NCBI GenBank assembly: GCA_964594295.1
Contig: CAZQPP010000001.1
Span: forward strand, 5,039 to 69,038
Source: an uncultured Myxococcales bacterium
Lineage (GTDB): Bacteria > Myxococcota_A > UBA9042 > UBA3505
Direction of reading: 5' to 3'
DNA length: 64,000 nucleotides
Shown here: piece after piece, positions 1 to 58,544 of the stretch
Position numbering within the stretch: position 1 is the stretch's first letter
How the letters are laid out: each line of letters begins with the position of its first letter
Notes under the pieces: model-generated
Seen by the model: the letters and a program-made list of their open reading frames with translations, nothing else
Told to the model about the DNA's origin: nothing
The model's database searches: none
Program-made: the position numbers and the translations under genes

Positions 1-1159
1 CCGCCTCCGTGTCCAGGTGCACCAGGCCGACAAGCGCGACCGGGTTCGGAAGGAACATCATGTTCCTCTGCCGCGGCAGGTCCTTGCCGTCTTCCTCGAA
101 AGAGCAGTGCAGCGACAGCAGCGCCGCCCCGCCCGACACCGCGACGTCCGGGAGGTGTCGCAGGCTTGCGTTCGGGAAGTCCGCCTTGACGCAGTCCTGG
201 AAGCTCGGCGTGTGGGTCGTCCCGCCCGTCATCACGACGTACTGGATCTCCTCCGCGCTCACGGAGGACTCCTCGAGGATATCGTCCCACAGCCTCTTGG
301 CGATCTTGTGCGTCGCCTGCACGAGCTCGTCGTAGCGTTTCCCGTCAAGGCGGAAGCGGAGGGCCTTGTCGGAGCCCGGCGTGAAGACTCTCGGGATCGT
401 GAACCAGGTCTCCGGGTCACGGCAGAGACCGCGCTTGGCCTGGTCGACCACCTCGAGGAGCTGAGCGAGGGAGGTCGGGTGCTTCACGTCGGCCAGCGTG
501 ATCCTGTTCTCCTCCAGCACGCGCAGGGCGGTCTGGAGGACCGTGAAGTCCATCGCGTTGCCCGCCATCAGGCCCTGCTCGCCGCCCTCGGCGAGGATGC
601 GCACCCCCTTTGAGGTGTTCCGGGCGACGGCGAAGCCAGAGCCGGAGTATCCCGCGGAGACCAGAGCTATGGTCGCTGTCTCTCGCCCCCCGATGTGGCG
701 CTCGCGGAAGAACTCGGCAGCCGCGGCGGCCTCGGAGCAGAGGGCGCACCTCTTGCCGGAGGAGGCCATCGCGTTGCGGAAGGCGCCGATGACGTGGCCG
801 TCGGCCCACATGGGGTAGGCGAGCATGACGCCGTCGGTCTCCCGGCTGCCGTACTGCTCGGCGCCCTCGATCGCCTCGGCGAGGAGGTTCGCGACGAGAT
901 CCCAGGTCTCCCACTTCTGCGCGCCGAGAGCTATCGCGAGGCCCCGCTCGAGCTGCTGGCAGAGGGAAGGGAAGAAGCGGCTGGCGTAGAGGTCCGCCGC
1001 CCGCGTCGGCAGCGAGATGGGGTAGTAGCGCTTCATCACCCGGAAGGTCTCCGGGACGTTCACGACGGTGCGCTCGCCGTCCGGGTACACGTAGGCAACG
1101 CGGGGGGAGCGGGAGCCGATGTCGATACCCAGGCGGATCGGCGTGTTCTCGTCCATCAT
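1..1159 (-). CDS. Hsp70-superfamily (actin-like fold) ATPase, second paralog. Partial: the C-terminus lies beyond the window start.
   Basis: Hand translation of the minus strand from ATG at 1159-1157 gives MMDENTPIRLGIDIGSRSPRVAYVYPDGERTVVNV... It carries Hsp70 nucleotide-binding-domain-like motifs: GIDIGS (phosphate-1), LVSAGYSGSGFAV (phosphate-2-like) and VVMTGGTTHTPSFQD (adenosine-motif-like). It is absent from the ORF track because there is no in-window stop. The start codon overlaps the stop of the upstream Hsp70 gene (ATGA at 1156-1159). The plus-strand ORF 17..613 in the track is its antisense shadow. Confidence 0.6.
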   Translation of the reverse strand, partial: MMDENTPIRLGIDIGSRSPRVAYVYPDGERTVVNVPETFRVMKRYYPISLPTRAADLYASRFFPSLCQQLERGLAIALGAQKWETWDLVANLLAEAIEGAEQYGSRETDGVMLAYPMWADGHVIGAFRNAMASSGKRCALCSEAAAAAEFFRERHIGGRETATIALVSAGYSGSGFAVARNTSKGVRILAEGGEQGLMAGNAMDFTVLQTALRVLEENRITLADVKHPTSLAQLLEVVDQAKRGLCRDPETWFTIPRVFTPGSDKALRFRLDGKRYDELVQATHKIAKRLWDDILEESSVSAEEIQYVVMTGGTTHTPSFQDCVKADFPNASLRHLPDVAVSGGAALLSLHCSFEEDGKDLPRQRNMMFLPNPVALVGLVHLDTEA

Positions 1160-3324: not shown

Positions 3325-3751
3325 TGTCCTGTTCCTCCTGCTTGTCCTTCTCCACGACGACGCGGGCCACTCGAAGCACCTTCCACTCCTTCTCTCCGAG
3401 GAGCTTCATCTCGTAGCCCCGGCGCAGGACCTCGAGGATGGTCCCTGGTGCCTCGCCCGACTCCCGCACCTCGTCGATCTTGTGGAAGCGAAGGTCCACC
3501 TGCCCGCCCGGGCACCCGAAGGGGCGCACACCGTGGGAGATGAAGGCCCGGTTCGCTCTCTCGATGGCCTTCGTCACGTTCTTGTGCTCGTCGCCGGTCG
3601 CTCTCCGCTGCCACTCCTCGAGCCAGTCGACGACCTCGATCACGGCGCCGACGAGGCTCTCGTGCTCCGCGAGCGCGCTCTTGATCAGGTCCTCGGGCGA
3701 CGGCCTCGCCATCACGCCGCGCATCTCCCTTGGGTTCAGCCTAGTCACCAT
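3317..3751 (-). CDS. GrpE-like nucleotide-exchange factor (short form), putative
   Basis: ORF-track 144 aa. The C-terminal segment RFHKIDEVRESGEAPGTILEVLRRGYEMKLLGEKEWKVLRVARVVV parallels the GrpE C-terminal signature FDPxxHQA...APGxVL..QKGYxL.GR.IR.AMVxV. It overlaps the Hsp70 start by 8 bp. The real start may be the internal Met (MRGVMARP...). Confidence 0.5.
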   Translation of the reverse strand: MVTRLNPREMRGVMARPSPEDLIKSALAEHESLVGAVIEVVDWLEEWQRRATGDEHKNVTKAIERANRAFISHGVRPFGCPGGQVDLRFHKIDEVRESGEAPGTILEVLRRGYEMKLLGEKEWKVLRVARVVVEKDKQEEQDNG

Positions 3752-4151
3752 TGTGCCTCCTATCCCCGAAAACCTCGGCGGGTGCGGGCAGCCGCGGAGC
3801 CCGGTCGGTCCACTCCTCTGCCGGGAGCGGCGGCGGCTCCTTCGCGAAGGCCTCTATGAGCTCGCGTGGCAGCCTCGCCCTCCAGCCGTCCACCTCCTGC
3901 ACGGAGGGCGCCTCTCGCGACAGCGCGCCGCAGAAGACCTCCAAGACGAGCCTCTGAGGCACCGATCGCAGAGCCCGCCACGCGCCGTGGACCGCCGGGT
4001 CGTTTCGGTCCGATCGGGTCATCTTGAAGCTGGCGTCGAGCACCTCGGTGTTCGAGCTGCTCGGGCCGACGCCGAGCCGCGCGAGGGCGACGAAAGGGTT
4101 GGGACCGTCCCACGGCAGCAGCGGATCGGCGAAGAGCTTCTCGTCGGCCAT
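3741..4151 (-). CDS. Small protein, possible degenerate J-domain-like co-chaperone (HPD replaced by NDP)
   Basis: ORF-track 136 aa. The segment LARLGVGPSSSNTEVLDASFKMTRSDRNDPAVHGAWRALRSVPQR has the spacing of a J-domain (YxxLGV..A..EIKKAYRKLA.KYHPDKN....AYEVLSD..R) but lacks the His-Pro-Asp triad. Its start shares one base with the CHAT gene stop (TGATG at 4149-4153). Confidence 0.35.
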   Translation of the reverse strand: MADEKLFADPLLPWDGPNPFVALARLGVGPSSSNTEVLDASFKMTRSDRNDPAVHGAWRALRSVPQRLVLEVFCGALSREAPSVQEVDGWRARLPRELIEAFAKEPPPLPAEEWTDRAPRLPAPAEVFGDRRHNGD

Positions 4152-7100
4152 CAGCCCTCCTTCACCGGAACCGGGACCAGGGTGGGACGCGCCTGGGTCC
4201 GCCGGCCTTGCATGAGGTCGCGCAGCCGCGACAGGTCGCTGCGCAGCTCCTGAACGGTTTTGTCATCGGGATTCAGATCCGGGTTGCGCTCCAGGAAGGA
4301 GTCCCCAACCTGGATCCCCTCGCCGCAAAGAAGCCTTGCCTCCTGGTGCTTCGACTCCTCCTTCAGCTCGATGCTGCGGATCGCAGAGATCTTCAAGAAG
4401 TTGCAGACGATGTGCGGCGTCTCGAGGGCGCGCACGGCGCTGCGGAGGAGGTCGTAGGCCTGCACGTGGCTCTTGTACGCGTTGGTTATGAAGATGGCGA
4501 CATCGGCCCGCAGCTTGGCCCACGCCCTCGTGACCACGGTGCTCCCCAGCGTCGCCGGGTGCCGGACCGACTCCAAAGCGCCCGCCAGGCGGCACGCGCG
4601 AACCAGCCTGCCCTCCAACGCCTCTCCATCCTTGTCGCCGGCGCCACCCTGCTTCTCCGCGTCGTACTCGCGAGTCGCCCCGATGGCCTTGTCGGCCCAC
4701 TCGCACAAAAGCCCCTCCACGTCACCGCCGCAGCTCACCCGCCTGCCCGCCAGTCGATAGCGGAGGGCCTCGAGGTAGGCGTCGAGGTCCTTGAGCTCTC
4801 GCAACGCCCTCTTTGCCGTCGAGAGCCGGGGTGTGCTGCGAGAGAGCTCTCGCCTGAGCTCCTCGAAGATCCGGCGGCCCGCCAGCATGGCTACGTGCGC
4901 GGAGAGCACGCGGCCCCGCTCTTCGTCCCGAAGGTTCGCGTGGAAAGGAAAGCGCTCGCCAAAGTCAGGTGCGTCGAGGAGCTCGTTGGCTCCTTCGCCC
5001 ACCTCCCCTTCCTCGAGCCGATCGGGGTCCGGCAGCAAGGACTTCGGGTCCTCTCCCCCCGTGCTCCCGAGGAGCGAGCCGAGCTCCGAGAATGAGAAGA
5101 CCAGGTCGTGGAAGGTCTCTACCGTCATGCGCTGGGCGAAGCGCACGTACTCGGCCTTCGACATCACGAGGAGCTCGGTGTAGACGCCGCTGAGCTCCTC
5201 GGCGACGGCGCCCAGGTAGCCGAGCCGGCGCGCAAGCTGGAAGCCCATGGCCGTCCCCCCGGGCACGGACTCGAGCGCGCTCGAGCTGCTCACGCCGAGC
5301 ATCTCCTGCTCGTCCAGGGCCCGCAAGCGGCGAACGAGCTCCAGGTCTCCCGTCCGGCTCTCGTGCTCCGCGAGGCAGTCGCCGAGGAGACCGGCCAGTC
5401 GGTCCTTGACCACCTCGACCAGCTCCCCGAGGTCGGCGGGGCGCGGCAAGCCGTAGACGTCGAAGCGCTGCCCGACCCAGGCGCGGACGCCGGACCTGCA
5501 ACCCCTCAGGGCGCCCAGGAGAGCGATGCACCGGTGGTAGAGGTCCTCGAAGAGCCCAGGATCGTCCGTGAGCGAGGCAGCGTGCAGGCAGATCAAGTAG
5601 GCTCCGCGAAGCCCCTCGAGCTGGACGAGGGGGCGCGTCGACTCCAGCGACGGGGCGACGCCGGCCCAGGCCTCTTCGACGGCCTCGCTGACCCTCCCTC
5701 CAGCCGCCAGCACCGCCACGCGGTCGGCGGGGGCGAGGCCCTCGAGGAGGGCGTCCGGCACGCACGTGGCGCCTTCCGCGACAGCCTCGAAGAGCGCTCG
5801 CAGCGCAGCGTTTGCGGCGGGTGGGTTCGTCGCCGGCAGGAAGGTGGCGTCTACCTCGAGCCGTGGCTTCGGCTTGCTCAGCCGGCGCAGAGAGCCTTGC
5901 TGCAGGCGCTTGGTGCGCGGAGAGTCGTGAGAAGGCGTCAGCTTCAGGATCTCCCCGGCGCTCATGCCGGGGTGGGCACCGGCCGCGGAGAGCACGAGGT
6001 AGTCGTGAGGAGCGTCGAGGGAGCGGCCGAGCTGGATCGGCGCCACCTCGTTGAGCATCACGGAGGCGAGCTCCGGCGGCAGGGAGGCGAGATCTGTCGC
6101 CTCCGAGTCGCTCGCCGGAGGTGCGGAGGCGAGGTAGGACTCCAGCCCGGCCAGGTCGTCGGGGATGTCTTGCCCGGCGCCGTCGGAGCTCCGCTCACCC
6201 GAGAGCCAGCGCAGCAGCTCCGCGCGCGCCCCGGGGAGCAGCAGCTCGGCGGACGGCCGGGAGGCTCCGCTCAGGCGCTCCAGGACCCGCGAGCGCAGGC
6301 TCTCGGTGAGGGCGGCCAGGCTCGCCTGGAGCCGATCGCGCTCCTCGTCGCTCAGCTTCGCCGCAGGCTCCGCCGACAAGAGAAGGTCCTCAGCGATGCG
6401 CAGGGCTCGCACGACCTCGGCCAGGTCCTCCGGCCCCTCCGCGTTGTCGATCTCTCTGCCTCGCTCCGCCAGCCACCCGCTCAGCTCTACGGCGTAGATC
6501 TCCCCGGCCAGGTCCGGCAGCGCCCCTCCGGGTTGCCCCGGCCCGAGCGAGCCGGCACGGACGAGCTTGGAGCACGCCTCGGGGAGCCTCGGCAGGGTAC
6601 CCGAGGACACGGCCGCGAGGTCTCCGAGAGCATCGACGCCCAGGGACACCGACTCGCTCAGGCGCCCGTGAAGCTCGCGCAGCAGCTCAACCTTGCGCCG
6701 TCCTCCGCGCGGATCGACGGCCACCGCCCCGGCGGTCCCGGGCAGGTCCGGGATGCGCTTGCTCCAGGCATCAAGCAGAGCGCTCCAGTTTCGCGCCGGC
6801 CGCGCGGCTTGGAGCTTGATGTCATCCTCGAGCTCGCCCAGGCTGGCCCGCAGCGCAGAGACACGGTCTGTCTCCTCAACGAGCTTCTTGGCACGCGCGG
6901 CGATGGGCGCCGACGGGCTGGACACGTAGCCCTTGAGGATCTGTAGAGCGCGCTTGGTGTTCCCCTCGTTCGCGAGCTGAATCGCCCTGTCGAAGACCTG
7001 CACGTCGCCTACGTCGAGGAGGGGAGGCAGGCTGGACGGGACGTACATGACGGGCAGGAACCACTCCGGCTCGCCGGCGAGGAAGAGCTCTTTGAGCGCG

Positions 7101-8053
7101 AGCCAGAAGGCGATCTCGGCGTGCCGGGCTCTTGGTCCCGATGGGTCGAGGAGGGCACGGTAGAAGTGCCGGAAGAAGGTCTGGAGCGTCTCGCGCTGCA
7201 TCCGGTCCACGAGCCCCACGACCCTGGCGCCCGGCAGGCGCCGGGCGATCTCGAAGGCGAGCGGGCTCGAGTGACACACCCCCAGCACTACGAGGCGCAC
7301 GTCCTTCAGAGCGGCCAGCCGCTCCGCGAGGACATGGTGCTGCACCGTGTTCGCGTGATCCTCCAGCCCGTGCAGCGACACCACATCGGGAGCGCGATAG
7401 CCGTGGGCCAGCACGTTGACGACGTGCCAGGTCGGGTCCTTGCCCGCCAGGGCCTCGAGCTGGGAGAGGGTGTCCTCTCCCTCGACGACCTTGTTGCAGG
7501 CTCCGGAGCCACCCAGGGCGCGGTGGGCGGCGCCGATCTCCTCCACTATGGGCTTGCAGTCGAAGCGTTCCAGCGGGGGGTCGCACGCGAGGGTCAGGGT
7601 CTTGAGAGGGCTCTTCTCCAGCTCGAGCACGGGTGCCGGCTCGCCGTGGACACCGCGCAGCAGCACACCGCCGGTCGAGACGAGCGGACGCTTCCGCTCG
7701 TCGATGGCGGCCTCCCACGCCACCTGCTCCAGATCCCGCCAGGCATCCTCCGCGGATCGGGGCGGGCGCAGCACGAAGGGGACCACGCCGTCCCCCTTCG
7801 GACGCCCTGCGATCGCGCAGGTCGAGGCGTGGATCCGGGCGCCGAGGCGGTGGAGGCGCTTCTGCTCGGTGGCCTTCAGGTCGCCGCACCACGCCAGCTC
7901 GGCCACGCTCGCGCTCTCCTCGCGGAGCTCATCGAGGTCGGCCTCGAGCAGCACCTCGAGCCCACGAACATCTCCCTCGTGGACCTCGTATACCGCCCAG
8001 CCGGGCCGGACTCGGCGAAGGACCAGCTCGACCGGCGACCCGAGCGCCTTCAT
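4151..8053 (-). CDS. CHAT-domain (caspase-like Cys protease) protein with a long C-terminal helical/TPR-like region
   Basis: ORF-track 1300 aa. The N-terminal ~330 aa carries the CHAT His/Cys dyad contexts HVVNVLAHGY and RLVVLGVCHSS. The rest is helical repeats. ATGA overlap with the upstream TPR gene at 8050-8053. Confidence 0.8.
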   Translation of the reverse strand: MKALGSPVELVLRRVRPGWAVYEVHEGDVRGLEVLLEADLDELREESASVAELAWCGDLKATEQKRLHRLGARIHASTCAIAGRPKGDGVVPFVLRPPRSAEDAWRDLEQVAWEAAIDERKRPLVSTGGVLLRGVHGEPAPVLELEKSPLKTLTLACDPPLERFDCKPIVEEIGAAHRALGGSGACNKVVEGEDTLSQLEALAGKDPTWHVVNVLAHGYRAPDVVSLHGLEDHANTVQHHVLAERLAALKDVRLVVLGVCHSSPLAFEIARRLPGARVVGLVDRMQRETLQTFFRHFYRALLDPSGPRARHAEIAFWLALKELFLAGEPEWFLPVMYVPSSLPPLLDVGDVQVFDRAIQLANEGNTKRALQILKGYVSSPSAPIAARAKKLVEETDRVSALRASLGELEDDIKLQAARPARNWSALLDAWSKRIPDLPGTAGAVAVDPRGGRRKVELLRELHGRLSESVSLGVDALGDLAAVSSGTLPRLPEACSKLVRAGSLGPGQPGGALPDLAGEIYAVELSGWLAERGREIDNAEGPEDLAEVVRALRIAEDLLLSAEPAAKLSDEERDRLQASLAALTESLRSRVLERLSGASRPSAELLLPGARAELLRWLSGERSSDGAGQDIPDDLAGLESYLASAPPASDSEATDLASLPPELASVMLNEVAPIQLGRSLDAPHDYLVLSAAGAHPGMSAGEILKLTPSHDSPRTKRLQQGSLRRLSKPKPRLEVDATFLPATNPPAANAALRALFEAVAEGATCVPDALLEGLAPADRVAVLAAGGRVSEAVEEAWAGVAPSLESTRPLVQLEGLRGAYLICLHAASLTDDPGLFEDLYHRCIALLGALRGCRSGVRAWVGQRFDVYGLPRPADLGELVEVVKDRLAGLLGDCLAEHESRTGDLELVRRLRALDEQEMLGVSSSSALESVPGGTAMGFQLARRLGYLGAVAEELSGVYTELLVMSKAEYVRFAQRMTVETFHDLVFSFSELGSLLGSTGGEDPKSLLPDPDRLEEGEVGEGANELLDAPDFGERFPFHANLRDEERGRVLSAHVAMLAGRRIFEELRRELSRSTPRLSTAKRALRELKDLDAYLEALRYRLAGRRVSCGGDVEGLLCEWADKAIGATREYDAEKQGGAGDKDGEALEGRLVRACRLAGALESVRHPATLGSTVVTRAWAKLRADVAIFITNAYKSHVQAYDLLRSAVRALETPHIVCNFLKISAIRSIELKEESKHQEARLLCGEGIQVGDSFLERNPDLNPDDKTVQELRSDLSRLRDLMQGRRTQARPTLVPVPVKEG

Positions 8054-10998
8054 TCGCTACCTCCCGGGCTGCCGTCCGCCCAAGCGATGTCCGAGCGCAC
8101 TCCGGCGATCAGAGGATGAGTGGGCGACCTGCGCGCGGCGATCTTCACGAGCTTCCTTGAGGTCATAAGGTGATCCTCGCCCTCGTCCACGCCATCTGAC
8201 ACCGCCCTCGCCAGGCACTGCGCGAGCACGAGGCACAGCGTGGAGTCCCGACGGGGGCTGAGAGCATACACGGTCTTCAGCAGCTCGGCAGCCTGGGCAT
8301 ACCTGCCCTTGAGCCTCAGGCGCAGCCCTTTGGCGAGCAGCTTGGAGACGGGGTCGTCGGCCTTCCACAGGGGCTTGTGGAGCTCCAGCTCGGCGTTCGC
8401 TATGCACAGCTCCGGCTCGTTCGGGTGGCGCGACACCGAGGTGGCCAGCGATCGGCGGAGCGCCTCGTAGGCCTCGAGGCCCACGGCGCCCGCATCGTGT
8501 CTCGGCCCTGCCGTCGCCGCCAGAGCGACAGCCACGGCGGCGCGCTGAACGAGCACCCGGGGATGGGTGGCGTGCTCTCCGAGCCCATCCAAGAGCGCGG
8601 CCGCCTCCTCGAACCGGCGCCCAGCCACCAGCTCACGGGCTCGTTCCAGCGCGCCGGTCGCCGCCGCCGGCGCCTCGGGGAGCCCCGGGGGCGGTGAGCT
8701 GCGGATCTCCACGACCTCCGAGAGGGGCACACCCCAGCCTACCACCTGAAGGGCTCGCTCGAGGTTCTTCACCTCCTCGTCGTCGCGCGCGCTGCGCTTG
8801 ATGCTCTTCACCGCCTCCCTCGCACGGTCCAGGAGCCTGTCCGCTTCCGCGGTGAGGCCGGCGTCCCTCGCCTCTTGGGCACACATGAGGAGGCTGAAGG
8901 TCCAGCTCGCCCCGGCCTGGGTGTCGTGCGGCTGCGCCCGCCACGCCGCCTGGTACTGGTCGGCCGCGTCCTGGTGACGACCGCTGTTGCCCAGCCGATA
9001 GCCGTAGCGCGCGAGGCTCCGGTGGTAGGTCGCCTCGAGACCGGGGATGCCGGTGTCGAGCGCCGTCTTCAGGAGACGCGTGGCCAGGGAGTCCGCGGCG
9101 AGAGAGTCGCGCTGCGCGAGCTGCTCGTCCTTCCCGATCAACAGCCTCGACAGGCGCTCCCGGGTCTCGGACTCCACGCCGAGGGCCACGGACTCACCGA
9201 TGGCCGCGCGCAGCATCTCGCTCACCTGCTCCACCTCGACGTCGGCGCTCAGGGAGGCCTTCAGGGCAGAGACTCCCACGTCCGAGCACAGGCGCGCGGC
9301 ATCCTGACGCAGGGCCTCCGCTGGGTCCGGCAAGCCGGCGAAGCCGAGGTTGAGGCGCTCGATCTCCGCTCGGTCCGCATCCGCTGGAGGCATGTACCGC
9401 ACGAACACGGCGAGGGCCGCGCGCCGGGCCGCCTCCCAGTTTCCGGCCGCGCGGTGGGCGTTGGCCAGGCTCAGCTCCGAGAACCAGCGGCGAAGGTCGG
9501 TGTCCTCCGCCACGCCCTCGTCGGGCAGGTCGATCCCGAACCTCCTGACGAGGGCGCGAAGGCGCTCGTCGGGCGGAGGCCTCCTCTCCTCCGAGGCGCT
9601 GTTCACGAAGTAGCTCCGGAGCTCCTCGAGCCCGGCGACTCTCTCGGCGAACAGAGGCCCGAAGCCGACGCGCGTTTTCCCCGCACCCGAAGACACCTGC
9701 GCCGCCTCGGCGTCCCAGACGGCCCGGGCGGCCATCAGCTCGCGGATCAGCTCGACGTGCAGCTCCGAGAGGGCCGCCGCCGCCTCCTCGTCCCCCCGGC
9801 CTTTGGCGTCGGCGATGGCGTTTGAGATCACTCGCTCAGCGTGCTGCTCGGCTCCCTGCCGGGTACCGTCGACGAAGCCGTCGTAGGGCTCGTCGCTCCC
9901 GTAGACCTTGAGCCGCTCCAGCACGAAGGCGCCCACCCAGCGGGGGTTTGCGAGGAACACCGACACGTGGGCGATGAAGTCCCGCCAGGCGTCGGCGTCA
10001 ACGGTGGGCAGCGAGCGGTGGGCCCGGATGAGCGCGAGGACGGCCAGGGTCCGTATGATGGTGGGGTTCCACGCGTCGGCGGCCTCCGCCTCGGCCAGCG
10101 CCTCGTATGCGCGGTCGTGGTCACCGCGGCGACCATACCAGGCGGCGACCTCCAGGTGATGCGCGTCGCGCGAGGGCGCGCTCGTCCCTATCCCCACCAG
10201 CCCGCCGACCAGGTTCCTGATCGAGGAGCAGTCGGCGTCTGCCGGATCGAGCACCGCGACGGCGTCCTCGAAGCGGCCGAGCAGGGAGAGCTCGCCGGCC
10301 AGCCTGTGCTGTAGCCACCGGCGGATGGGGGCACGATGACGCGCGCCCTCGAGCGCCGCGGCCAGGGCTGATGCCCGCTCGGCGCGGGTCGGGCGCGTCA
10401 TGGCCAGGAGCGCCCGATCCAGCCCCTCTCCGCTCTCCGAGAGGTGCCCGGCCGCGCGGCGTGCGGTGGAGATGTCTCCCTGCTTGAGAGCGCTCAGCGA
10501 GATCGCGCGCCACAGGTGGTCGACCTTCGGACGCGAAGGTGTGCCGATTCCAGGTTGCCGACCTTGCGTAGCAGGGCTTCCGTCCGGCGAGGCCGCGTCG
10601 TCTCGGGACGGCCCAGCCGATCCCGGCAAAGAGCCCTGGACAGGCTCCTGGCGACGGCGCGCAGCCTCGAGACCTTCGAGCGTCGTGGCTGCCTCGGACA
10701 AGCGGCCTTCCGCCACACACTCCTCACAGTGAGCGATCCGCGCCTGGTCCAGGGCAGGGCCGGCGGCTTTGGCCCCCGCGTCGCTCAGGTCCTCCCACGC
10801 CTCCAGGGCCTTCGCGTGCTGACCGGCCCTCCACAGCGCGAGGCCGGTCGCGTAGGCGGTCGCGTCCGAGCGCTCGTCAGATGCCAGGCCGGAGAGACAC
10901 TCGATCACGGCCAGCAGCTGTCCACCTTCGGCGCGAGCCGCGTCCTCGAGCAGCTCCACGATCTCGGGGTCTGTCGGCCAGGTGTGCGCGGCGCTCAT
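8050..10998 (-). CDS. TPR-repeat protein (~982 aa)
   Basis: The ORF track extends to 11403, but the first 135 residues are Arg/Gly/Pro-rich frame shadow overlapping the upstream gene. ATG at 10998-10996 (MSAAHTWPTDPEIVELLED...) overlaps the upstream stop TGA 10995-10997. The body is rich in TPR-like A/L/Y/W helical repeats (e.g. AYATGLALWRAGQHAKALEAWEDL). Confidence 0.7.
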   Translation of the reverse strand: MSAAHTWPTDPEIVELLEDAARAEGGQLLAVIECLSGLASDERSDATAYATGLALWRAGQHAKALEAWEDLSDAGAKAAGPALDQARIAHCEECVAEGRLSEAATTLEGLEAARRRQEPVQGSLPGSAGPSRDDAASPDGSPATQGRQPGIGTPSRPKVDHLWRAISLSALKQGDISTARRAAGHLSESGEGLDRALLAMTRPTRAERASALAAALEGARHRAPIRRWLQHRLAGELSLLGRFEDAVAVLDPADADCSSIRNLVGGLVGIGTSAPSRDAHHLEVAAWYGRRGDHDRAYEALAEAEAADAWNPTIIRTLAVLALIRAHRSLPTVDADAWRDFIAHVSVFLANPRWVGAFVLERLKVYGSDEPYDGFVDGTRQGAEQHAERVISNAIADAKGRGDEEAAAALSELHVELIRELMAARAVWDAEAAQVSSGAGKTRVGFGPLFAERVAGLEELRSYFVNSASEERRPPPDERLRALVRRFGIDLPDEGVAEDTDLRRWFSELSLANAHRAAGNWEAARRAALAVFVRYMPPADADRAEIERLNLGFAGLPDPAEALRQDAARLCSDVGVSALKASLSADVEVEQVSEMLRAAIGESVALGVESETRERLSRLLIGKDEQLAQRDSLAADSLATRLLKTALDTGIPGLEATYHRSLARYGYRLGNSGRHQDAADQYQAAWRAQPHDTQAGASWTFSLLMCAQEARDAGLTAEADRLLDRAREAVKSIKRSARDDEEVKNLERALQVVGWGVPLSEVVEIRSSPPPGLPEAPAAATGALERARELVAGRRFEEAAALLDGLGEHATHPRVLVQRAAVAVALAATAGPRHDAGAVGLEAYEALRRSLATSVSRHPNEPELCIANAELELHKPLWKADDPVSKLLAKGLRLRLKGRYAQAAELLKTVYALSPRRDSTLCLVLAQCLARAVSDGVDEGEDHLMTSRKLVKIAARRSPTHPLIAGVRSDIAWADGSPGGSE

Positions 10999-13400
10999 CG
11001 GAACAACAGCCTCGTCTGCCACATCCACGTCTCGCCTCCGCTGAGGCGGAGGGTCTTCGTCCCGTCGCCAAGGTCGAGGGACGCCGCGTCCGCGCCCGCG
11101 ATCCGGGAACCCGGTTGCTCGGAGGGCCGGGCGCCGGGGTCGAGCGTCACCCCCGCCGCTACCCCATCTCTCCACAATGGCGGTGCCGTGTCCCGGGCGG
11201 TGACCAGCAGCGAGATCAGCCACGCGCTGGTTTGCTCCGGGTGCTCCTCGCGGAGGGCCTGGCCGTCGGGGAAGGATGTCCAGCGGCCCTGCTCGATTCG
11301 GAGGCCCTTCCGCGGGTGACCCAGCGCTCCGAATCCGTCGACCTCCCGGACCACCCCGTCGCGGTCCAGAGCGGCCACGAGCAACAGGGCGTGGCACCTG
11401 CACGTGGGGCGAACGAGCACCTTGACCATCCGTCCCCGCTCGACGCTGGCGCCCGGAGCGACGCCCTCGAAGCCGTCACCCGAACCTACGGCGAGGGCGA
11501 CGTCGACCGCCGCGCCTGTCGTCTCCACGTCCCCGACGCCATCGCCGGGATCGATCCGGCTCCCCCTCAGCAGGTCCAAGGCCGCCGGCGCCGAGGGGCG
11601 CTTGGTCGGCTTCTTCGCTCCGAGCCTCTGGAGCAGAGGGCCGAGCGGCGGAGGCAAGCCCGCTCCGGGGCCACGGGCAGTCTCGGTTGGTCCCCTGGCG
11701 GGCATCTTCGGGACCTTGCCGGTCGCCAGGAAGTGCATCGCCGCGGCCAGGCTGTAGACGTCGGCCGCCGTGCTCCGGCGGCGTTTGGACGTGAGCTCGG
11801 GGGCGGCGAAGCGGCAATGCGGCAAGGCCCGGGCCGTCGTGCCGGCCTGCGCCAGGGCGAGGCCGAGATCGGCGAAGGACGCCCGCCCGTCCTCCGAGAC
11901 GAAGACATCACCGGGGGAGAGAGAGCCCCACGTGAGCTCCCCGTCGTGGAGCCTGGCGAGACCCTCGAGCAGATCCTCCAGCCACCGCAGGACCTCGGCA
12001 CATGAGGCCCGGCCGGCGCGCTCTAGCGCGCAGCCTCCGGAGACGTCGTCGAGGAGCACGAAGAGACCTCCCAGGCCGTCTTCGCCAGGCAAGGCGTGCA
12101 CCAGCTCCGGAATGCTCGACACTCCCAGGTCGGTGTTTGCTCGAACACGCGCATCCAAGGCCTCCGGGTCGAGGGCGCTCCGGTCGAGGAGGCGGACCAC
12201 GACCCTTCGGCGGCGCAGGTTCGCGTCGACCACGCGCCAGGCGCGGACATCGGGGTCGTCGCGGAGGGTGGCGCCCACCTCGAAGTGTGCTCCGAGCGAC
12301 TGCGCCACCTCGTGGGGCACTGCCAGGTCTGCGCAATCGGGCCCCAGCTCGCATATCCCGATGCTCCGCCTCCAATCACGGAGCCAGTCCTCGAAGGAGC
12401 GCGCCTCGTTCCCCCCGGCGGCGTCGCCGGGCCGGGTGCCGTGCTCGTCGTGCTTCGACACGTGGTCACGAACCTCCACGTAGTCGAGGGGCTTGCCGGC
12501 ATTCCAGAAGAGGAGAGACCTCTCGCCGCCTCCGCTGTCTCGGCCGTCATCCACCCTGAGCAGCAGGCCGACAGGCAGGGCCTTGGTCGCGGAAGGGTCC
12601 AAGATGTACACGCGACCGGGGCGCAGCCCGGCGGTCTCCGGCCAACGCAGCTGTGTCGCCGCCTTGGCGGCGAGGCTCTCGCTGCCGACCAGCAGTCGGA
12701 TGCGCCCCTCGAGGCGATCGTCGTGCTTGCCGAACCTGATCTCGTCCACCACGAAGGGGCGGTACGCTCTAAGCCAGCGGAGAGACTGGAGCGTGGCCTT
12801 GAGCGCGGCGGCGAAGCCCTCGACGTAGAGACGCCGGGGTTCTCCTCTCAGCGGCGGGTCGTGACTCCACGTGTTCCGGAGCTGCACCAGCAGGTCGAGC
12901 TGGTCGTGTCCTGATACGCTGCGCCCCTCCTCGTTGAGCACCGCGTCGTGGAACATCCACCGCGGCGCCTCGGGGACGAAGGCATCGGGCCTGGCCTGGA
13001 GCGACGTGGCGAGGTTCCGCAGCAGGCCCAGCAGCTTGCCGAGGAGCGGTTTCCGCAGGTCGACCCAGCTCGCCTCGACCTCCTCCGAGGGTGCTCCTCG
13101 CAAGTAGTCCGGGAGGAGCGTGACCAGCAAGGTTCGCAGCAGGACCTCCACGGCCCCCACGAGTGACTCTGCCTGTGCCTCGGGAGCTCCGTTCCCGGTG
13201 ACAATGACGTCCCGGACCGCGACCGCCAGGGGCATTGGCAGGGCAGCGACAAGTGCCTTGTCTCGTCCTGGATCCCAAGCTGGCATCGTCTTCGGCAGCC
13301 CCAAGAATAGCGCATGGGTGTTGGCGTGCGGACTATATCGGCCGAGGCGGATCGGCACCAGCGGCGCCACTTGCCGGAGCCGGGTGCCGGCCCTGACCAC
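10995..13400 (-). CDS. HEPN-like (RNxxxH) N-terminal domain fused to a degenerate Ser/Thr kinase-like (pseudokinase) domain plus a C-terminal region of unknown fold
   Basis: ORF-track 801 aa from GTG 13400. The likelier start is ATG 13286 (MPAWDPG...), which has a TATAGT -10-like hexamer upstream. The N-terminal ~250 aa is paralogous to the N-terminus of the 36147 protein (shared LLPDYLRGAP and LVQLRNTWSHD versus LIELRNEDAHG, i.e. an R-x4-H motif). The kinase region has DLG and APE-like motifs, but the HRDLKPxN box reads WGSLSPGDV, so the catalytic Asp and Lys are lost. Confidence 0.7.
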   Translation of the reverse strand: MVRAGTRLRQVAPLVPIRLGRYSPHANTHALFLGLPKTMPAWDPGRDKALVAALPMPLAVAVRDVIVTGNGAPEAQAESLVGAVEVLLRTLLVTLLPDYLRGAPSEEVEASWVDLRKPLLGKLLGLLRNLATSLQARPDAFVPEAPRWMFHDAVLNEEGRSVSGHDQLDLLVQLRNTWSHDPPLRGEPRRLYVEGFAAALKATLQSLRWLRAYRPFVVDEIRFGKHDDRLEGRIRLLVGSESLAAKAATQLRWPETAGLRPGRVYILDPSATKALPVGLLLRVDDGRDSGGGERSLLFWNAGKPLDYVEVRDHVSKHDEHGTRPGDAAGGNEARSFEDWLRDWRRSIGICELGPDCADLAVPHEVAQSLGAHFEVGATLRDDPDVRAWRVVDANLRRRRVVVRLLDRSALDPEALDARVRANTDLGVSSIPELVHALPGEDGLGGLFVLLDDVSGGCALERAGRASCAEVLRWLEDLLEGLARLHDGELTWGSLSPGDVFVSEDGRASFADLGLALAQAGTTARALPHCRFAAPELTSKRRRSTAADVYSLAAAMHFLATGKVPKMPARGPTETARGPGAGLPPPLGPLLQRLGAKKPTKRPSAPAALDLLRGSRIDPGDGVGDVETTGAAVDVALAVGSGDGFEGVAPGASVERGRMVKVLVRPTCRCHALLLVAALDRDGVVREVDGFGALGHPRKGLRIEQGRWTSFPDGQALREEHPEQTSAWLISLLVTARDTAPPLWRDGVAAGVTLDPGARPSEQPGSRIAGADAASLDLGDGTKTLRLSGGETWMWQTRLLFR
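13332..13337 (-). promoter_or_regulatory. -10-like hexamer TATAGT (minus strand) upstream of the probable ATG 13286 start of the seven-gene operon
   Basis: The minus-strand sequence cggccgaTATAGTccgcacgcc lies ~46 nt upstream of ATG 13286. There is no convincing -35. Confidence 0.25.
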
Positions 13401-16312: not shown

Positions 16313-18181
16313 TCAGATCCTCTGCTTCGTCAACGCACGCTCGAGCAGCGCACCTATCTCGGACGCGAAACGATCCACGGGCACCTCGGCAATCGACTCG
16401 GGGTAGAACTCGCGAACGTGCTCCGTGTCCGGACCGAGCCCCACGCCGACGAGCTCGACGTCGCACGCGGCGTTGCGGAGCTCGGCGATGGCCTGCTCGA
16501 GGTCGTGCTCGTCGGAGTGTCTTCCTTCGGGGTAGCCGTCGCTGACCGAGATCAGGAGCCTGTCGGTGCAGGGGTAGTCGAGCAGCAGGGCGGCCGCCCT
16601 CCGGAGACAGGGGCCGTCGTCGTTGTAGGCGGGCTCGTTGTGGCCGTCGGGGCGCTCTCCGGCGACCTCGAGCGGCATCTCGCCGATGGCCCTTCGCGCT
16701 GAGGCGGTGAGGCCGTCACCGAAGTTGGCGAAGGGGATGATCTCATCTTGAAAGCCGATGACCGCGAACGGGATGCCGAGCTGGCTGAGGCACTCGACGA
16801 GGAGCACGCTTCCCTGCAGCGCTGCGGTGGCCTTGTCGCCACGCATCGAACCGCTCAGGTCGACGAGCAGCATGACCGCGGCGTCGCGTCGCTCGGGGAT
16901 CGAGGAGCGCATCCACAGGTCGTCGTAGCGACGCGGGTCTGCGTGGAAAGCCATCAGCAGCCGCAGGTCCACGCGCTGCCCGGTCGGGTAGCCGCCGACC
17001 GTTCGAAGGCGCTTGCGCGGCCGCAGCACCTCCTCGATGTGTCCGGCCAGGCGGTCGATCTGGCTGGCCACGGCTGCCCGCGCTCTCTCGTAGGAGGAGT
17101 CGTCGCTCCAACGCACCTGCAGCGGCTCAGACGATCCGGTGGGCCCGACGGGGCTTTGGCCCGCTTCGTCGGGTGAGCCGAGAAGCGGCGAGCGACCGTG
17201 CCCCGGCTGCCCCGGTGCTCCGCCCTGCTCGGCGACTGGAGAGGAGGTTCGGGAGCGCATGAGCACGTCGAGCAGCTCGTTCGCCACAGCCTCCACGGAG
17301 GGCCTGGGTGTGTGCTTGGCGCGCTCGGCGGTCGTGGCCTCCCCTACGATGCGCGCGGCTGCGCGGGCGTCGCTCCGGCGCACGGAATCTCGGGCCCGTT
17401 GCGCTCGCTCGGGATCTCCGGCGAGGTGCTGCGCCACGCGCTCGCGATCGGCCTGCAGCAGGCGCCGGGCCACCGGCAGCACCTCGTCGACGGCGACGCG
17501 CAGGGCCTCGGCCGCGGAGAGCCGCACGGCCTGCTCGACGCGCGGAGGTATCCAGCGGCTGGCCGCGGCCGTCAGCCAGGGCCAGACCTCCTCGCGGTAA
17601 CGCGTGCCGAGCTCCGTCCCCATGGCCGTGGGGTCGAGGCTGACGGGCGGAAGGGTGTTGGCATAACGAATGCGCGCTTCCCGGGTCTCGGACAGGGCCT
17701 CGATGACCGCGGGCGGGCTCGCCGCCGGGTCCGGATTCGGTCGCCAGCCGGTCCTGCCCTCGGCCGCACACTCCCCGCAGAAGCGAATGAAGTCGGGAAG
17801 CACGGCGTTGGCGTCGGGGTGCCCGTATACTTCTGCGGCGCTTCTCAGCCACGCGGCCGCTCCGGGATATCGACGGCGAATCCAGGTCTCCACGCGGGGG
17901 TCTTCGATGCTGTTGAGCGCCAGCGCCAGGGCCGCGGGCGAGTCGAAGTCGACCTCGAAGATGGTGTAGCGGGAGGTGAAGAAGTGGCCCACCTCGTGGG
18001 CGACGATGCCGGCGCAGAGGTCGGGGCCGTGCGCCGAGAGGTCGTCGCGGGCGACCATGAGCACGCGGCGCACGGGATCCCAGGCCCAGGTCTGTGGGTG
18101 GAGCTCGAGGCCGATGCCGGCGTCATGGCACAGCCCCGAAGCGAGCGCCGAGAGCGCCTCGAGCTTGGCCTCGAGGCTCAA
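16313..18181 (-). CDS. vWA-domain protein with an N-terminal HExxH metallopeptidase-like domain (DUF2201-like architecture)
   Basis: ORF-track 622 aa. HExxH in IVAHEVGHFF near the N-terminus. MIDAS motif in VMLLVDLSGSM near the C-terminus. 4-bp overlap with the upstream AAA+ gene. Confidence 0.8.
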   Translation of the reverse strand: MSLEAKLEALSALASGLCHDAGIGLELHPQTWAWDPVRRVLMVARDDLSAHGPDLCAGIVAHEVGHFFTSRYTIFEVDFDSPAALALALNSIEDPRVETWIRRRYPGAAAWLRSAAEVYGHPDANAVLPDFIRFCGECAAEGRTGWRPNPDPAASPPAVIEALSETREARIRYANTLPPVSLDPTAMGTELGTRYREEVWPWLTAAASRWIPPRVEQAVRLSAAEALRVAVDEVLPVARRLLQADRERVAQHLAGDPERAQRARDSVRRSDARAAARIVGEATTAERAKHTPRPSVEAVANELLDVLMRSRTSSPVAEQGGAPGQPGHGRSPLLGSPDEAGQSPVGPTGSSEPLQVRWSDDSSYERARAAVASQIDRLAGHIEEVLRPRKRLRTVGGYPTGQRVDLRLLMAFHADPRRYDDLWMRSSIPERRDAAVMLLVDLSGSMRGDKATAALQGSVLLVECLSQLGIPFAVIGFQDEIIPFANFGDGLTASARRAIGEMPLEVAGERPDGHNEPAYNDDGPCLRRAAALLLDYPCTDRLLISVSDGYPEGRHSDEHDLEQAIAELRNAACDVELVGVGLGPDTEHVREFYPESIAEVPVDRFASEIGALLERALTKQRI

Positions 18182-21150
18182 CGATCGCCGCCCTGGTCCC
18201 CGGAGTCCGGACCGCCGTCGCTGTCGCCGTCACCGCCGCTGCTCTCACCGGGCGCTCCGATGGACCACGTATTCGGCCCGATGCCGGCGGCGTCGAGGAG
18301 CCGCACCACCACGTTCCGATCCGCGGAGGTCGCCACCCGGCCCACGTAGTAGCGCAGCAGGGCGCGCCGGAAGGCGAGGATCTTCTGCGTTCCGTCCTCC
18401 CCGGCCAGGACGCTGCCGAGGAAGTCCATCACGCTCAGGAGCCCGCGCCGGGTGAAGACGTAACGTTCCTTGCGCCGCGCACCCAGCCGCGCCGTACCGT
18501 CCTCGCTGCGCACCGCCGCCTCGAGCCCCGCGTGGAAGCGGGCCAGCGCGGTGAGCAGCTCGGCGATGTGGTCTATCTCGGCCAGCGAGCCCAGGGCAGG
18601 CACGGTCGCGCTGCCGCCGGTGTATGCTCTCCCTCGCAGGGTGACCGGCGGCTGAGCGCCGTACACCAGGTACCTCAGCATCGCGAGATACCCGCGCTCA
18701 CCCGGAGGCGACACATAACGATAGCCGCGCCATCGATCCCGGTAGGCCGGGCTGAGCGTCGAGCGACCGGCGTACTCCGCGGGGTTCATCGTGGCGAAGA
18801 TCCGGAAGCTCGGGTGGACGGGCGTCTTCGAGCCTCCGATCACCTCGTTGCAGTGCTCGGTGACGACAAGGTAGGGGTCGCGCTCGAGGACCGAGTTCAG
18901 GCGCTCCAGGATCTGAGGCTCGGCCAGGTTGACCTCGTCGAGGATCACCCACCATCCATGGCGCATGGCCTGCACGACCAGCCCGTCGTGCCACCTCCAC
19001 GGGTGGCTGTGCATGCGCTCGTTGGCCATGATCTGCTGAACCTCGAGGGCGCTCAGGGCTCTGCTCTCCTCATCCGCGCGGGTCAGGATCAGCTTGGTCT
19101 CCGGCTCGAGCAGGTCGGAGGACTCCCTGAGATCATCGGGCCGGAAAGGCAGCTCCAAGGCGAGATCCTGCGGGACGAAGCGACCTATCAGCTCGCCGGT
19201 GTCGGTCTGGCCGTTGAGGTTCAGCCTCGCCACCGGCTGGTTCAACAACGAGGCCAGGTAGAGCACGCTGCTCGTCTTCGAGGTGCTGGTCTCGCCCTCG
19301 AGCAGGCAAGGCTCGCGCAGGAGCGCGCAGGTCGCGACGTGCGCCAGGGTCGCCGCCGTGTGCTCGTCGAGGCAGTAGTGCGCGAAGGCGCCGGGATCCG
19401 GCGCGCTCTCGTGGCGGGGGCCTGACAGCCGGCGCAGCGTCACGTCGCCCACCCGCAGCGACTCCGCCTCCACGTGCACGAAGGGGGTCGGCTCCCCCGG
19501 GTCCGAGTCGACCTCGCGCAGCCAGCTGTCCACGTCGAAGTCACCCGTGTTGTCGCCTTCCTCCTCGCTCCGGATCGCGGAGTCGTCCTGGCGCGGAAGG
19601 AACAACCAGATGTCGTTGTCGGAGTCCGGCCACGCCTTCTCCACGGGAATGTCGACACCGACGTGCTCGAGGACCAGCGCCTTGATCTCGCTTATCAGGT
19701 ACGACGGTGCGCCGCCGTAGCGGATCTCCCGATCGCGGGAGCCGGTTCGCTGCGAGACCGAGCCGAAGCCGTAGGAACGCAGCTCCTCACACAGCTCGGG
19801 CCAGTCCTCCGAGGAGTGCTTGTGAATTGACAGGTCGAACCTCGACGCCCGCGCGCGGAGCCTCTCCCGCAGCGAGCCGTCGTCGATCCCCTCGGTGGGG
19901 ATCTGCACCACGATCCGCTGTGGGCTGGAGTCGTCGCCCAGCTTCACCGTCTCCAGCGAGAAGCCCTCGGCGCCGATCTCCTCCATCGCCCGTCGCACGA
20001 CGGCCTCGAGTGGGCCGGCCACGGTGGGCTCGTCCGAGCTGCCGCTCCAGATGATCGAGAAGCCGCGAAGCTCGCCGGACAGCGGCGCGGTTTGCACGGA
20101 GGCGAAGCCCATGCCCTCGAGCTCCTCGACGAGCCCCGTGAGCTCGTCGGGCTTGTCGGTCTCGACAGTCACGGCGAAACGCTCCGGGTAGGGGCCGGCG
20201 TAGGGGCGTATCCTGCCTCCCTCGAGCGCACCCATGGGCATCAGGATGCGCGCGCTCATGGGGGCGGAGTTGTCCTTGTTCACGACCGGAAAGCGCGTCG
20301 AGTCCACGCCACGGTCGCTGAGGAAGCTCTTGAACAGGCTGCCGAGACGCGACCCGTCCACACCGGCGCTGTCCTCGTCGAGCTCGGCGAAAGGACCGGG
20401 CGAGAGCTCGAAGCGACAGGTCTCCATGGTCGAGGAGTCAAGCTCCCGCACGCTCAGGTTCGTGAAGCCTCCCGATCGCAGCCGGCCGCAGAGGGCCTCG
20501 GCAGCCTCCAGGTCGTCCGAGAGCACCTCGACCTCGAGGTACTCCCCGGGCTTCTTGGCCTCGTGCTCCGGATCCCTCAGGTACAACCAGATGTCGTCGT
20601 CACCGTCAGACCAGGCCTTTCGTTCCTCCAGCTCTATGCCGAGATCGTGAGCCAGCAGCCAGCGGATGGCGTGACGGACGAAGGGCGTGGCGCCGCCGTA
20701 CATGAGCTGGCTCTCCTCCTGGTATTCCAGCTCCGTACCTTCGTAGGTCAGGCCCAGGCTGGCCAGGGTCCTACGAGCCTCGGCGGCGACCTTCTTCGAG
20801 TCGACCTTGAGCGAGACGTCCCATTTCCCGCACGAGGTCGTGTCCCCGAGCCGCAGCTCCGCGTCGGCGCCCTCGAGCCCCGGGAGCGACTTCATCGGCG
20901 GGCTCAGCGGGCGCAGCGCGCGCATCAGCGCGTGCAGATCGGCGGCCCCGATCGAGTTGCTGTGGCAGAGCTCGTAGGTAGTGCTCGTGGCTGATCTGAT
21001 GTCGACCGACCAGCCCTCCTGCGCCTCCAGGACGGCGGCCAGGGGAAGAGTAATCTCTCCGATGTCGCTGACGATACGGATTCTCAAGGTTCGTTCATCC
21101 GGCCTGCGTGATTGAAAGCTACCCGAAGCGCTCAATGCTGCCTCAGACAC
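18178..21150 (-). CDS. AAA+ ATPase (AAA_5/MoxR-McrB-like) with a ~600-aa N-terminal region containing an internally duplicated module
   Basis: ORF-track 990 aa, GTG start. Degenerate Walker A LLEGETSTSKTS. Walker B WWVILDEVN. FATMNP sensor region. The N-terminal half carries two copies of ...GGA(P/T)...(E/V)(R/E)KAW(S/P)D(G/S)D(D/N)DIWL(Y/F)L. Confidence 0.75.
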   Translation of the reverse strand: MSEAALSASGSFQSRRPDERTLRIRIVSDIGEITLPLAAVLEAQEGWSVDIRSATSTTYELCHSNSIGAADLHALMRALRPLSPPMKSLPGLEGADAELRLGDTTSCGKWDVSLKVDSKKVAAEARRTLASLGLTYEGTELEYQEESQLMYGGATPFVRHAIRWLLAHDLGIELEERKAWSDGDDDIWLYLRDPEHEAKKPGEYLEVEVLSDDLEAAEALCGRLRSGGFTNLSVRELDSSTMETCRFELSPGPFAELDEDSAGVDGSRLGSLFKSFLSDRGVDSTRFPVVNKDNSAPMSARILMPMGALEGGRIRPYAGPYPERFAVTVETDKPDELTGLVEELEGMGFASVQTAPLSGELRGFSIIWSGSSDEPTVAGPLEAVVRRAMEEIGAEGFSLETVKLGDDSSPQRIVVQIPTEGIDDGSLRERLRARASRFDLSIHKHSSEDWPELCEELRSYGFGSVSQRTGSRDREIRYGGAPSYLISEIKALVLEHVGVDIPVEKAWPDSDNDIWLFLPRQDDSAIRSEEEGDNTGDFDVDSWLREVDSDPGEPTPFVHVEAESLRVGDVTLRRLSGPRHESAPDPGAFAHYCLDEHTAATLAHVATCALLREPCLLEGETSTSKTSSVLYLASLLNQPVARLNLNGQTDTGELIGRFVPQDLALELPFRPDDLRESSDLLEPETKLILTRADEESRALSALEVQQIMANERMHSHPWRWHDGLVVQAMRHGWWVILDEVNLAEPQILERLNSVLERDPYLVVTEHCNEVIGGSKTPVHPSFRIFATMNPAEYAGRSTLSPAYRDRWRGYRYVSPPGERGYLAMLRYLVYGAQPPVTLRGRAYTGGSATVPALGSLAEIDHIAELLTALARFHAGLEAAVRSEDGTARLGARRKERYVFTRRGLLSVMDFLGSVLAGEDGTQKILAFRRALLRYYVGRVATSADRNVVVRLLDAAGIGPNTWSIGAPGESSGGDGDSDGGPDSGDQGGDR

Positions 21151-58534: not shown

Positions 58535-58544
58535 CGGCCCGGCG

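Follow-up and report, generated by a model that had tools for sequence, protein, structure and literature searches.

Three proteins encoded in a 64,000-nucleotide stretch of DNA from an uncultured Myxococcales bacterium (GTDB lineage Bacteria; Myxococcota_A; UBA9042; UBA3505) share an unannotated domain of approximately 265 amino acids (aa) that lies directly N-terminal to a Hanks-type kinase fold. The stretch, referred to here as the window, covers positions 5,039 to 69,038 of the forward strand of contig CAZQPP010000001.1 (NCBI GenBank assembly GCA_964594295.1) and has a G+C content of 69%. The domain is a probable member of the HEPN superfamily, although its sequence scores are below threshold, and we class it as a new family with a new architecture within a known superfamily. 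The predicted role of the domain is that of a kinase-gated HEPN ribonuclease (RNase) effector of an immune module, a prediction to which we give even chances.

The shared domain and its R-N-x3-H motif

The first of the three genes (10995-13400, minus strand) was taken from the list of open reading frames (ORFs) and their translations as encoding an 801-aa protein, in which the HEPN-like helical domain and a β-barrel (together 12456-13265, minus strand; family hidden Markov model (HMM) E 3.6e-60) are followed by a pseudokinase and a unique tail of approximately 180 residues. The family alignment does not begin until about residue 47, so the true start of this gene is probably the ATG at 13286, which would give a protein of 763 aa. 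The second gene (36147-39911, plus strand) encodes a 1254-aa protein with the HEPN-like domain (approximately residues 9-174) and β-barrel (approximately residues 176-277; together 36162-36962, plus strand), an active kinase and a WD40 array; it is this copy that was modelled. The third (26806-31824, minus strand) encodes a giant protein of 1672 aa in which a Tubulin_2 domain is followed by approximately 500 residues without a Pfam match, a Macro domain, the shared domain and barrel (27841-28587, minus strand; HMM E 9.3e-60) and an active kinase.

A first-pass annotation of the window had proposed that the 801-aa and 1254-aa proteins share an N-terminal domain, with a third copy in the giant protein, and BLASTP bears this out. 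Between the 801-aa and 1254-aa proteins, the N-terminal regions can be aligned over 234 aa at 33% identity (E 5e-30), and an internal region of the giant protein (residues ~1040-1390) is matched by the 1254-aa protein at E 7e-7 and by the 801-aa protein at E 1e-4. A search of the six-frame translation of the 64-kb window with the family HMM returned exactly three copies and no fourth, the next best match having an E value of 0.45. Near-identical database counterparts of the 1254-aa and giant proteins, P0002 and P0004 (1656 aa), are encoded on one 69.6-kb NCBI contig, with P0002 starting at Met6 of the 1254-aa protein; exact database look-ups returned no record of the window proteins themselves.

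The peptides in which the motif had been noted are present, and their coordinates were recomputed. In the 801-aa protein the peptide is LVQLRNTWSHD (12858-12890, minus strand), containing the Rx4H motif RNTWSH at 12861-12878 (minus strand), and in the 1254-aa protein it is LIELRNEDAHG (36543-36575, plus strand), containing RNEDAH (residues 137-142) at 36555-36572 (plus strand). The corresponding peptide of the giant protein, LVEQRNDLLKRR (28207-28242, minus strand), reads R-N-D-L-L-K at 28213-28230 (minus strand), with lysine replacing the histidine.

No model in Pfam, NCBIfam or PADLOC covers the shared domain, and the current database labels of family proteins are just “protein kinase” or “hypothetical protein”. 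When 1.84 billion cluster representatives were scanned in full with HMMER, 2,661 proteins were retrieved at E≤1e-3, of which 793 had E≤1e-10 and 114 had E≤1e-30. Word-indexed protein searches were nearly blind to the family, returning one, zero and two proteins, and nothing was found by single-protein scans of genomes and metagenomes or by a tblastn search of plasmids with the family consensus. The family merits a profile model of its own.

The counts of architectures and motifs that follow were made on the best 150 of the 2,661 matches plus the window copies. Of the 154 family proteins, 127 have the domain starting no more than 60 residues from the N-terminus, and 88 have a canonical HRDxKPxN motif after it. 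All 43 proteins scanned from the HRDxKPxN-bearing group match Pkinase; at least 8 of the 47 scanned proteins that lack HRDxKPxN still match Pkinase as well, so some of these also have kinases. BLAST alignments cover the domain, linker and kinase as a single block of approximately 560 residues, and the two database genes that encode the domain alone each have a kinase gene directly downstream on the same strand (L015, 1813-4240, and L016, 596-2420, with gaps of 37 and 121 bp). The C-terminus of one family protein, P0001, looks out of frame, which suggests that at least one split between domain and kinase is an assembly frameshift.

Conservation of the arginine and histidine among homologs had been set beforehand as a test of the motif, and both residues are well kept. 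Across 153 aligned domains the arginine is present in 148 (97%), the asparagine in 137 (90%) and the histidine in 126 (82%), and the arginine is, jointly with one glycine, the most conserved position of the whole domain. A polar residue typically follows the arginine in HEPN families. The full R-N-x3-H triplet occurs in 121 of the 153 domains, 74 of which precede a kinase that matches HRDxKPxN, while 23 are in long proteins without such a match and 24 in short or truncated ones. The 801-aa protein retains R-N-x3-H despite its dead kinase, as do some further long members in which HRDxKPxN is not matched, which speaks for a function of the motif that is independent of phosphotransfer.

The remaining domains are not all alike. 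R-N-x3-K is found in 15 of the 153 (approximately 10%), and 11 of these 15, the giant protein included, precede an HRDxKPxN kinase. A further 17 or so domains have an eroded motif, many of them in proteins of approximately 640-735 residues without an HRDxKPxN match. The giant protein's copy had been called degenerate; the lysine is there as described, but simple decay was rejected as an explanation, since R-N-x3-K recurs across the family and the giant copy is a member of this form and not a one-off.

Predicted fold and relationship to HEPN domains

The 265-aa region is predicted to be an unmodelled HEPN family, consisting of a helical bundle that carries R-N-x3-H and a small β-barrel behind it. 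An AlphaFold2 model of residues 1-288 of the 1254-aa protein, calculated from an alignment of 54 sequences, gave a predicted local distance difference test (pLDDT) value of 95.3 and a predicted template modelling (pTM) score of 0.93; a model from a 4-sequence alignment was unusable (pLDDT 45.6). The model contains helices at residues 9-18, 21-32, 38-65, 71-81, 85-101, 110-116, 125-142, 148-168 and 170-174, of which 38-65, 85-101, 125-142 and 148-168 are the long ones, and residues 102-124 form an insert. Ten strands between residues 176 and 277 follow the helices as a barrel-like domain. The stretch WLRGYRIF, which had been read as helical in the first-pass annotation, covers in the model the end of the last helix and continues into the first β-strand.

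In HEPN proteins the Rx4-6H motif sits where one helix ends and extends into the loop ahead of the next long helix (PMC3710099). The modelled placement agrees with this rule, as R137-H142 make up the last turns of helix 125-142 and are followed by a loop (143-147) and helix 148-168. A non-HEPN fold, which had been named in advance as the outcome that would speak against the assignment, is thus not what the model gave. The model conforms to the HEPN fold at the level of its secondary structure, in a comparison where generic bundles score similarly.

When the model was compared with known structures, the first and second ranks were both taken by Roquin-1 (4txa, score 10.5; 4qik, 9.8), at 8-9% sequence identity. 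These were followed by TTHA0636, a HEPN protein encoded beside a nucleotidyltransferase gene (1wwp, 8.8), a HEPN toxin (8xdj, 8.4), the HEPN protein AF0298 (2hsb, 8.4), HI0074 (1jog, 8.3), Csm6 (6tug, 7.8), the sacsin HEPN domain (3o10, 7.5) and a HepN toxin (5yep, 7.4). The small HEPN proteins superpose on the model at 2.7-2.9 Å over 107-111 residues.

Sequence comparison points the same way at low scores. A permissive Pfam scan of 54 domain sequences matched HEPN_RiboL-PSP in six (best E 0.0057), HEPN_Swt1 in three and HepT-like in one, and the first two were the only Pfam families matched by more than one of the 54 domains. For two family consensus sequences the best matches included HEPN_Swt1 (E 0.014), HEPN_RiboL-PSP (0.012-0.017) and HEPN_MAE_28990 (0.093), with LVELRNxLAHG aligned in each case to the motif-bearing C-terminal part of the profile.

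By these weak matches the nearest of the surveyed HEPN RNases (Anantharaman et al. 2013, PMC3710099) are the Swt1-like, RiboL-PSP and MAE_28990 families. The new domain has in common with HEPN RNases a helical bundle in which an insert precedes the helix that carries the motif, the Rx4H motif with asparagine after the arginine and its placement ahead of the last long helix, the conflict-system neighbourhoods and the fusion to variable partner domains. It differs in that Pfam, NCBIfam and PADLOC models do not detect it, in that it always carries an appended β-barrel of approximately 100 aa, and in that domain and Hanks-type kinase are inherited together as one unit. A bacterial HEPN-kinase architecture is not listed in the 2013 survey (PMC3710099), and none was found in the full-text literature that we searched, which is an incomplete collection.

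Kinase switch, predicted mechanism and alternatives

The catalytic motifs of the kinases were judged by alignment with 40 family kinases. In the 801-aa protein the kinase region (11565-12287, minus strand) scores 30.9 bits against Pkinase, below the gathering cut-off of 31.7. The G-loop, LGxGGMA in the family, reads LRDDPDV; the β3 lysine is replaced by arginine (ALK to VVR); and the catalytic loop HRDIKPSN reads WGSLSPGD, so that the HRD aspartate has become serine, the loop lysine is lost and the asparagine is replaced by aspartate. The Mg-binding loop reads DLG for DFG, with its aspartate retained, and the APE at the end of the activation segment is also kept. The loss of catalytic residues together with the score below the gathering cut-off identifies the domain, at the level of its sequence, as a pseudokinase, in agreement with the earlier report that the catalytic aspartate and lysine are missing. 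The same report held the kinases of the other two proteins to be intact, and this too was confirmed. The 1254-aa protein has an active Hanks-type Ser/Thr kinase (37122-37916, plus strand; Pkinase E 2.5e-41) and the giant protein another (26881-27648, minus strand; Pkinase E 1.8e-38), and both retain the lysine, the glutamate, HRDxKPxN, DFG and APE/SPE.

Domains found alongside the new domain vary from protein to protein. Of the proteins scanned, 8 of the 43 with a kinase and 6 of the 47 others have an FGE-sulfatase domain, a WD40 partner was seen in three scanned homologs, and an FHA partner also occurs. The new domain is preceded in P0130 by a cNMP-binding domain and in P0110 by a PCMT methyltransferase, and in the PglZ fusion P0054 (1179 aa) the new domain (531-804) is followed by PglZ without a kinase. 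In P0144 (560 aa) the kinase comes first (12-270) and the new domain second (277-541), which is the Ire1/RNase L order. P0121 (1117 aa) begins with two tandem DUF4145 HEPN domains whose R..GN.GTH motif is intact and continues with a P-loop motif (GPSGCGK), a hydrophobic stretch and a C-terminal new domain of the lysine form. This layout hints that the lysine form may be able to act in a sensor or regulatory position. The DUF4145 part of P0121 is separate from the new domain and N-terminal to it, without overlap.

The presumed sensor of the 1254-aa protein is its C-terminal WD40 array (38247-39908, plus strand; Pfam WD40). Sixty bp ahead of this gene on the same strand lies a gene for a TIR-NACHT(NPHP3_N)-WD40 protein (32043-36086, plus strand; Pfam TIR_2 4.2e-21, NPHP3_N 3.5e-23, WD40), and the WD40 arrays of the two proteins are 43% identical over 612 aa (E 5e-131); the C-terminal tail ECLATWVAE.AVLCCAW falls within the region that is alike in both. 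Because the arrays are so similar, the same kind of sensor appears on two chassis, one of TIR and NACHT and the other of the HEPN-like domain and kinase. This is the strongest contextual argument, and suggests that the HEPN-like domain occupies the effector position and the kinase the switch position.

An RNA ligase gene (39985-40668, plus strand; Pfam RNA_ligase 1.6e-29), with the nucleotidyl-transferase motif KLDGEN intact, lies on the same strand as the 1254-aa gene and 73 bp downstream of it, and no terminator-like site was seen between the two. It is possible that the ligase is an RNA-repair partner of the 1254-aa protein. HEPN nucleases and ligases are known as cut-and-religate pairs from PrrC with T4 Rnl1 and from Ire1 with tRNA ligase, and the pairing in the window would recall these if the domain is a nuclease.

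The mechanism that we propose treats the HEPN-like domain and barrel as a unit inherited with the Hanks-type Ser/Thr kinase directly C-terminal to it, and most members as carrying variable ligand-binding domains, such as WD40 or FGE-sulfatase/C-type-lectin-like domains, after the kinase. The layout would then be effector (HEPN-like), switch (kinase) and sensor (repeats), with the kinase in place of the STAND NTPase of TIR-NACHT-WD40. An invader-derived ligand on the C-terminal sensor would cause the kinase domains to self-associate, and the kinase fold, active or dead, would relay the signal through nucleotide binding and dimerisation. Two HEPN-like domains would meet and form a composite RNase site from their two Rx4H motifs, and the cutting of RNA would lead to growth arrest or abortive infection. 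The dead kinase of the 801-aa protein may serve as a scaffold or nucleotide-binding switch alone, in the manner of RNase L, and this protein is probably controlled by the TPR-like, 1300-aa, GrpE-like and Hsp70 proteins co-transcribed with it. The giant copy, with lysine for histidine, is probably no RNase and may have a regulatory or binding role next to an active kinase.

More tentatively, and with rather less than even confidence, the family could be a large bacterial group of single-chain immune receptors in which a nucleotide-dependent kinase-fold switch, in place of a STAND NTPase, gates an N-terminal HEPN RNase through a C-terminal WD40- or lectin-like sensor, an independent invention of the Ire1/RNase L principle in active-kinase as well as pseudokinase versions, in this locus perhaps with a resealing RNA ligase. 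If the domain is an active RNase, the family would be a widespread group of bacterial dual-enzyme kinase-RNases for which the libraries used here hold no model. It would then follow that HEPN nucleases became coupled to kinase folds on more than one occasion, that the kinase fold joins the central switches of NLR-like immune proteins, and that a tractable bacterial system is available for the gating of a HEPN nuclease by a kinase or pseudokinase through nucleotide binding and oligomerisation.

The three proteins had been put forward as bacterial analogues of RNase L and Ire1 with the domain order inverted, and of this proposal the architecture held up while the mechanism is an analogy only. 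As in RNase L and Ire1, a HEPN-type domain is fused directly to an active (Ire1-like) or dead (RNase L-like) kinase fold and a separate sensor lies at the other end of the kinase. However, RNase L and Ire1 have the kinase or pseudokinase first and then KEN, a member of the HEPN family, whereas the new family has the HEPN-like domain, barrel, kinase and sensor in that order, with the β-barrel and a conserved F..WL linker between the new domain and the kinase. In each of the three window proteins the domain precedes the kinase, and P0144 is the sole kinase-first homolog among the 154 family proteins. Neither in structure nor in sequence was any specific similarity to KEN seen, and a KEN-like identity was rejected for lack of KEN matches. 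With the order reversed, the barrel and linker interposed and specific KEN similarity absent, the new domain is not KEN, and the resemblance is therefore probably a functional analogy that arose by independent fusion.

A closer parallel in layout exists among bacteria. PglW from type 2 BREX and certain DndF proteins combine a NERD nuclease, a pseudokinase, an active kinase and sensor modules, and their nuclease has been proposed as a back-up suicidal effector (PMC12839542). They share with the new family an N-terminal nuclease-type domain followed by pseudokinase or kinase and C-terminal sensing, but their nuclease is a PD-(D/E)xK DNase (NERD) and not HEPN-like. Of the 801-aa protein, only the kinase part is matched by PglW-type models, and the match is weak. 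The STAND NLR-like proteins, represented by the adjacent TIR-NACHT-WD40 protein, have the same tripartite logic, N-terminal effector position and kind of WD40 sensor, and differ in having a STAND NTPase switch where the HEPN-like proteins use a kinase fold, and TIR where these have the HEPN-like domain. The HEPN domain of Roquin (4txa, 4qik), for which RNA binding has been reported and no nuclease activity, differs in not being known to cleave RNA and in having just 8-9% identity with the new domain.

Several results count against a kinase-gated HEPN RNase. No Pfam HEPN score is significant (13-16 bits against cut-offs of 27-28, E ~0.01), PDB searches with a single sequence and with a profile returned nothing relevant, and Foldseek, which had been suggested as a check against HEPN families, gave no significant match in PDB or BFVD. 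The equivalence of R137 and H142 to the catalytic HEPN residues is one of secondary-structure position only, and Roquin, which matches the model best in structure, has a HEPN domain that binds RNA. Most members conserve the catalytic residues of the kinase strictly, and the effector could therefore be the kinase itself. Genomic context is no independent support for RNA targeting, because none of the neighbours is common to the window and nine further loci. These nine were the true loci recovered with a hand-made degenerate LLPDYLRGxP pattern, and come from Myxococcota and Thermoanaerobaculia assemblies, one assembly labelled Alphaproteobacteria, one “uncultured proteobacterium” and metagenome contigs.

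The alternative that fares best, though we consider it unlikely, is that the domain has a HEPN fold and is not a nuclease, but a module for dimerisation or for binding nucleotides, RNA or ligands, through which the kinase is regulated; the kinase would be the effector and would phosphorylate host or invader proteins, a mode of action that has been put forward for kinase-based defence proteins. An alignment of the 43 HRD-bearing members, all of which match Pkinase, shows little or no variation at the kinase catalytic residues, and the kinase part of the 801-aa protein resembles the defence kinases PD-T4-6, mad6 and MkoA (PADLOC and NCBIfam models). A regulatory role would also suit the lysine form, which keeps the arginine and asparagine without the histidine beside an intact kinase and which in P0121 stands at a sensor-like C-terminus behind the two DUF4145 HEPN domains, as well as the top rank of RNA-binding Roquin. 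It is less easily reconciled with the finding that the best-conserved polar site of the domain is R, N and H, the catalytic signature of HEPN RNases (PMC3710099), or with the persistence of the motif beside the dead kinase and in up to 23 long members lacking HRDxKPxN; the domain also holds the N-terminal position that TIR has in the paralogous neighbour.

It is distinctly improbable that the domain is unrelated to HEPN, that is, some other helical bundle and barrel using R-N-x3-H, for example, in metal or phosphate binding, with a likeness that is convergent or an artefact. The absence of a significant sequence link to any HEPN family and of a significant Foldseek match would fit such a view, as would an hhalign comparison with a two-sequence DUF4145 profile from P0121, which gave a probability below 1% with this thin profile. 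Against this, four different HEPN Pfam families give the only weak matches that recur, all aligned on the motif, the position of the motif in the helices fits the HEPN description, and asparagine follows the arginine in 90% of members.

Myxococcota encode very many Ser/Thr kinases. That these are kinases for ordinary signalling in a bacterium whose life cycle is complex, with a housekeeping sensor as N-terminal domain and no role in conflict or RNA cleavage, would suit the occurrence of members in Myxococcota, Thermoanaerobaculia and one assembly labelled Alphaproteobacteria and the lack of conserved defence neighbours at the nine other loci, but is the least probable of the explanations, since it does not account for three copies in 64 kb densely packed with conflict-system genes (TIR-NACHT, Macro, MoxR-like AAA, vWA, two GmrSD, and Hsp70 with a GrpE-like protein), for the WD40 sensor shared with a TIR-NACHT protein, or for the fusion of some homologs to PglZ or to DUF4145 with a P-loop motif.

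Neighbouring genes in the window

The 801-aa gene is followed on the minus strand by a run of genes (1156-10998) in which every mapped junction overlaps or abuts, beginning with the overlap of its stop codon and the next ATG as ATGA (10995-10998). This next gene encodes a 982-aa TPR-like protein (8050-10998, minus strand) with weak TPR matches, and overlaps by 4 bp (8050-8053) the gene for a 1300-aa protein without a Pfam or NCBIfam match (4151-8053, minus strand). Genes for a 136-aa protein (3741-4151, minus strand), a 144-aa GrpE-like protein (3317-3751, minus strand; weak, NCBIfam 1.2e-4) and Hsp70 (1156-3324, minus strand; Pfam HSP70 1.4e-97) complete the run. The pseudokinase gene had been described as the first of a CHAT/Hsp70 operon, of which the Hsp70 part is sound. 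The CHAT part found no backing, as the 1300-aa protein has no CHAT match in Pfam even at E 0.5 and none in NCBIfam. Its first 300 residues contain, by eye, a caspase/CHAT-like His/Cys pattern (VLAHG ... LGVCHS), with CHAT itself unconfirmed, and the remainder looks long and mostly helical.

The Hsp70 protein matches DnaK models only over the nucleotide-binding domain (residues 11-404). Past residue 404 it has a Cys-rich zinc-ribbon-like insert, CEACETRNPLEAAECQNPDC, and then a non-canonical C-terminal half. An ORF on the opposite strand (1213-3543, plus strand) matches NAD-GH (PF10712, E 1.4e-39); because it is antisense to the Hsp70 gene it is almost certainly spurious and was rejected as a real gene.

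Beside the giant gene are genes for a MoxR-like AAA protein (25303-26736), a HEAT-repeat protein (21256-25164), an AAA_5 protein (18178-21150) and a vWA/CobT-like protein (16313-18181), a layout reminiscent of the MoxR-vWA “ternary” conflict systems. Further genes of conflict or stress type, in the right-hand part of the window (48342-63891), encode an 842-aa PHP and Pol III alpha-like protein (48342-50870), a HerA/TrwB-like ATPase (51506-53998), two overlapping ORFs that match GmrSD models (54543-56288 and 56129-58534), ARPP-1 (60366-61358), an M48 peptidase fused to TerB (61477-62790) and an OmpA-family protein (62821-63891).

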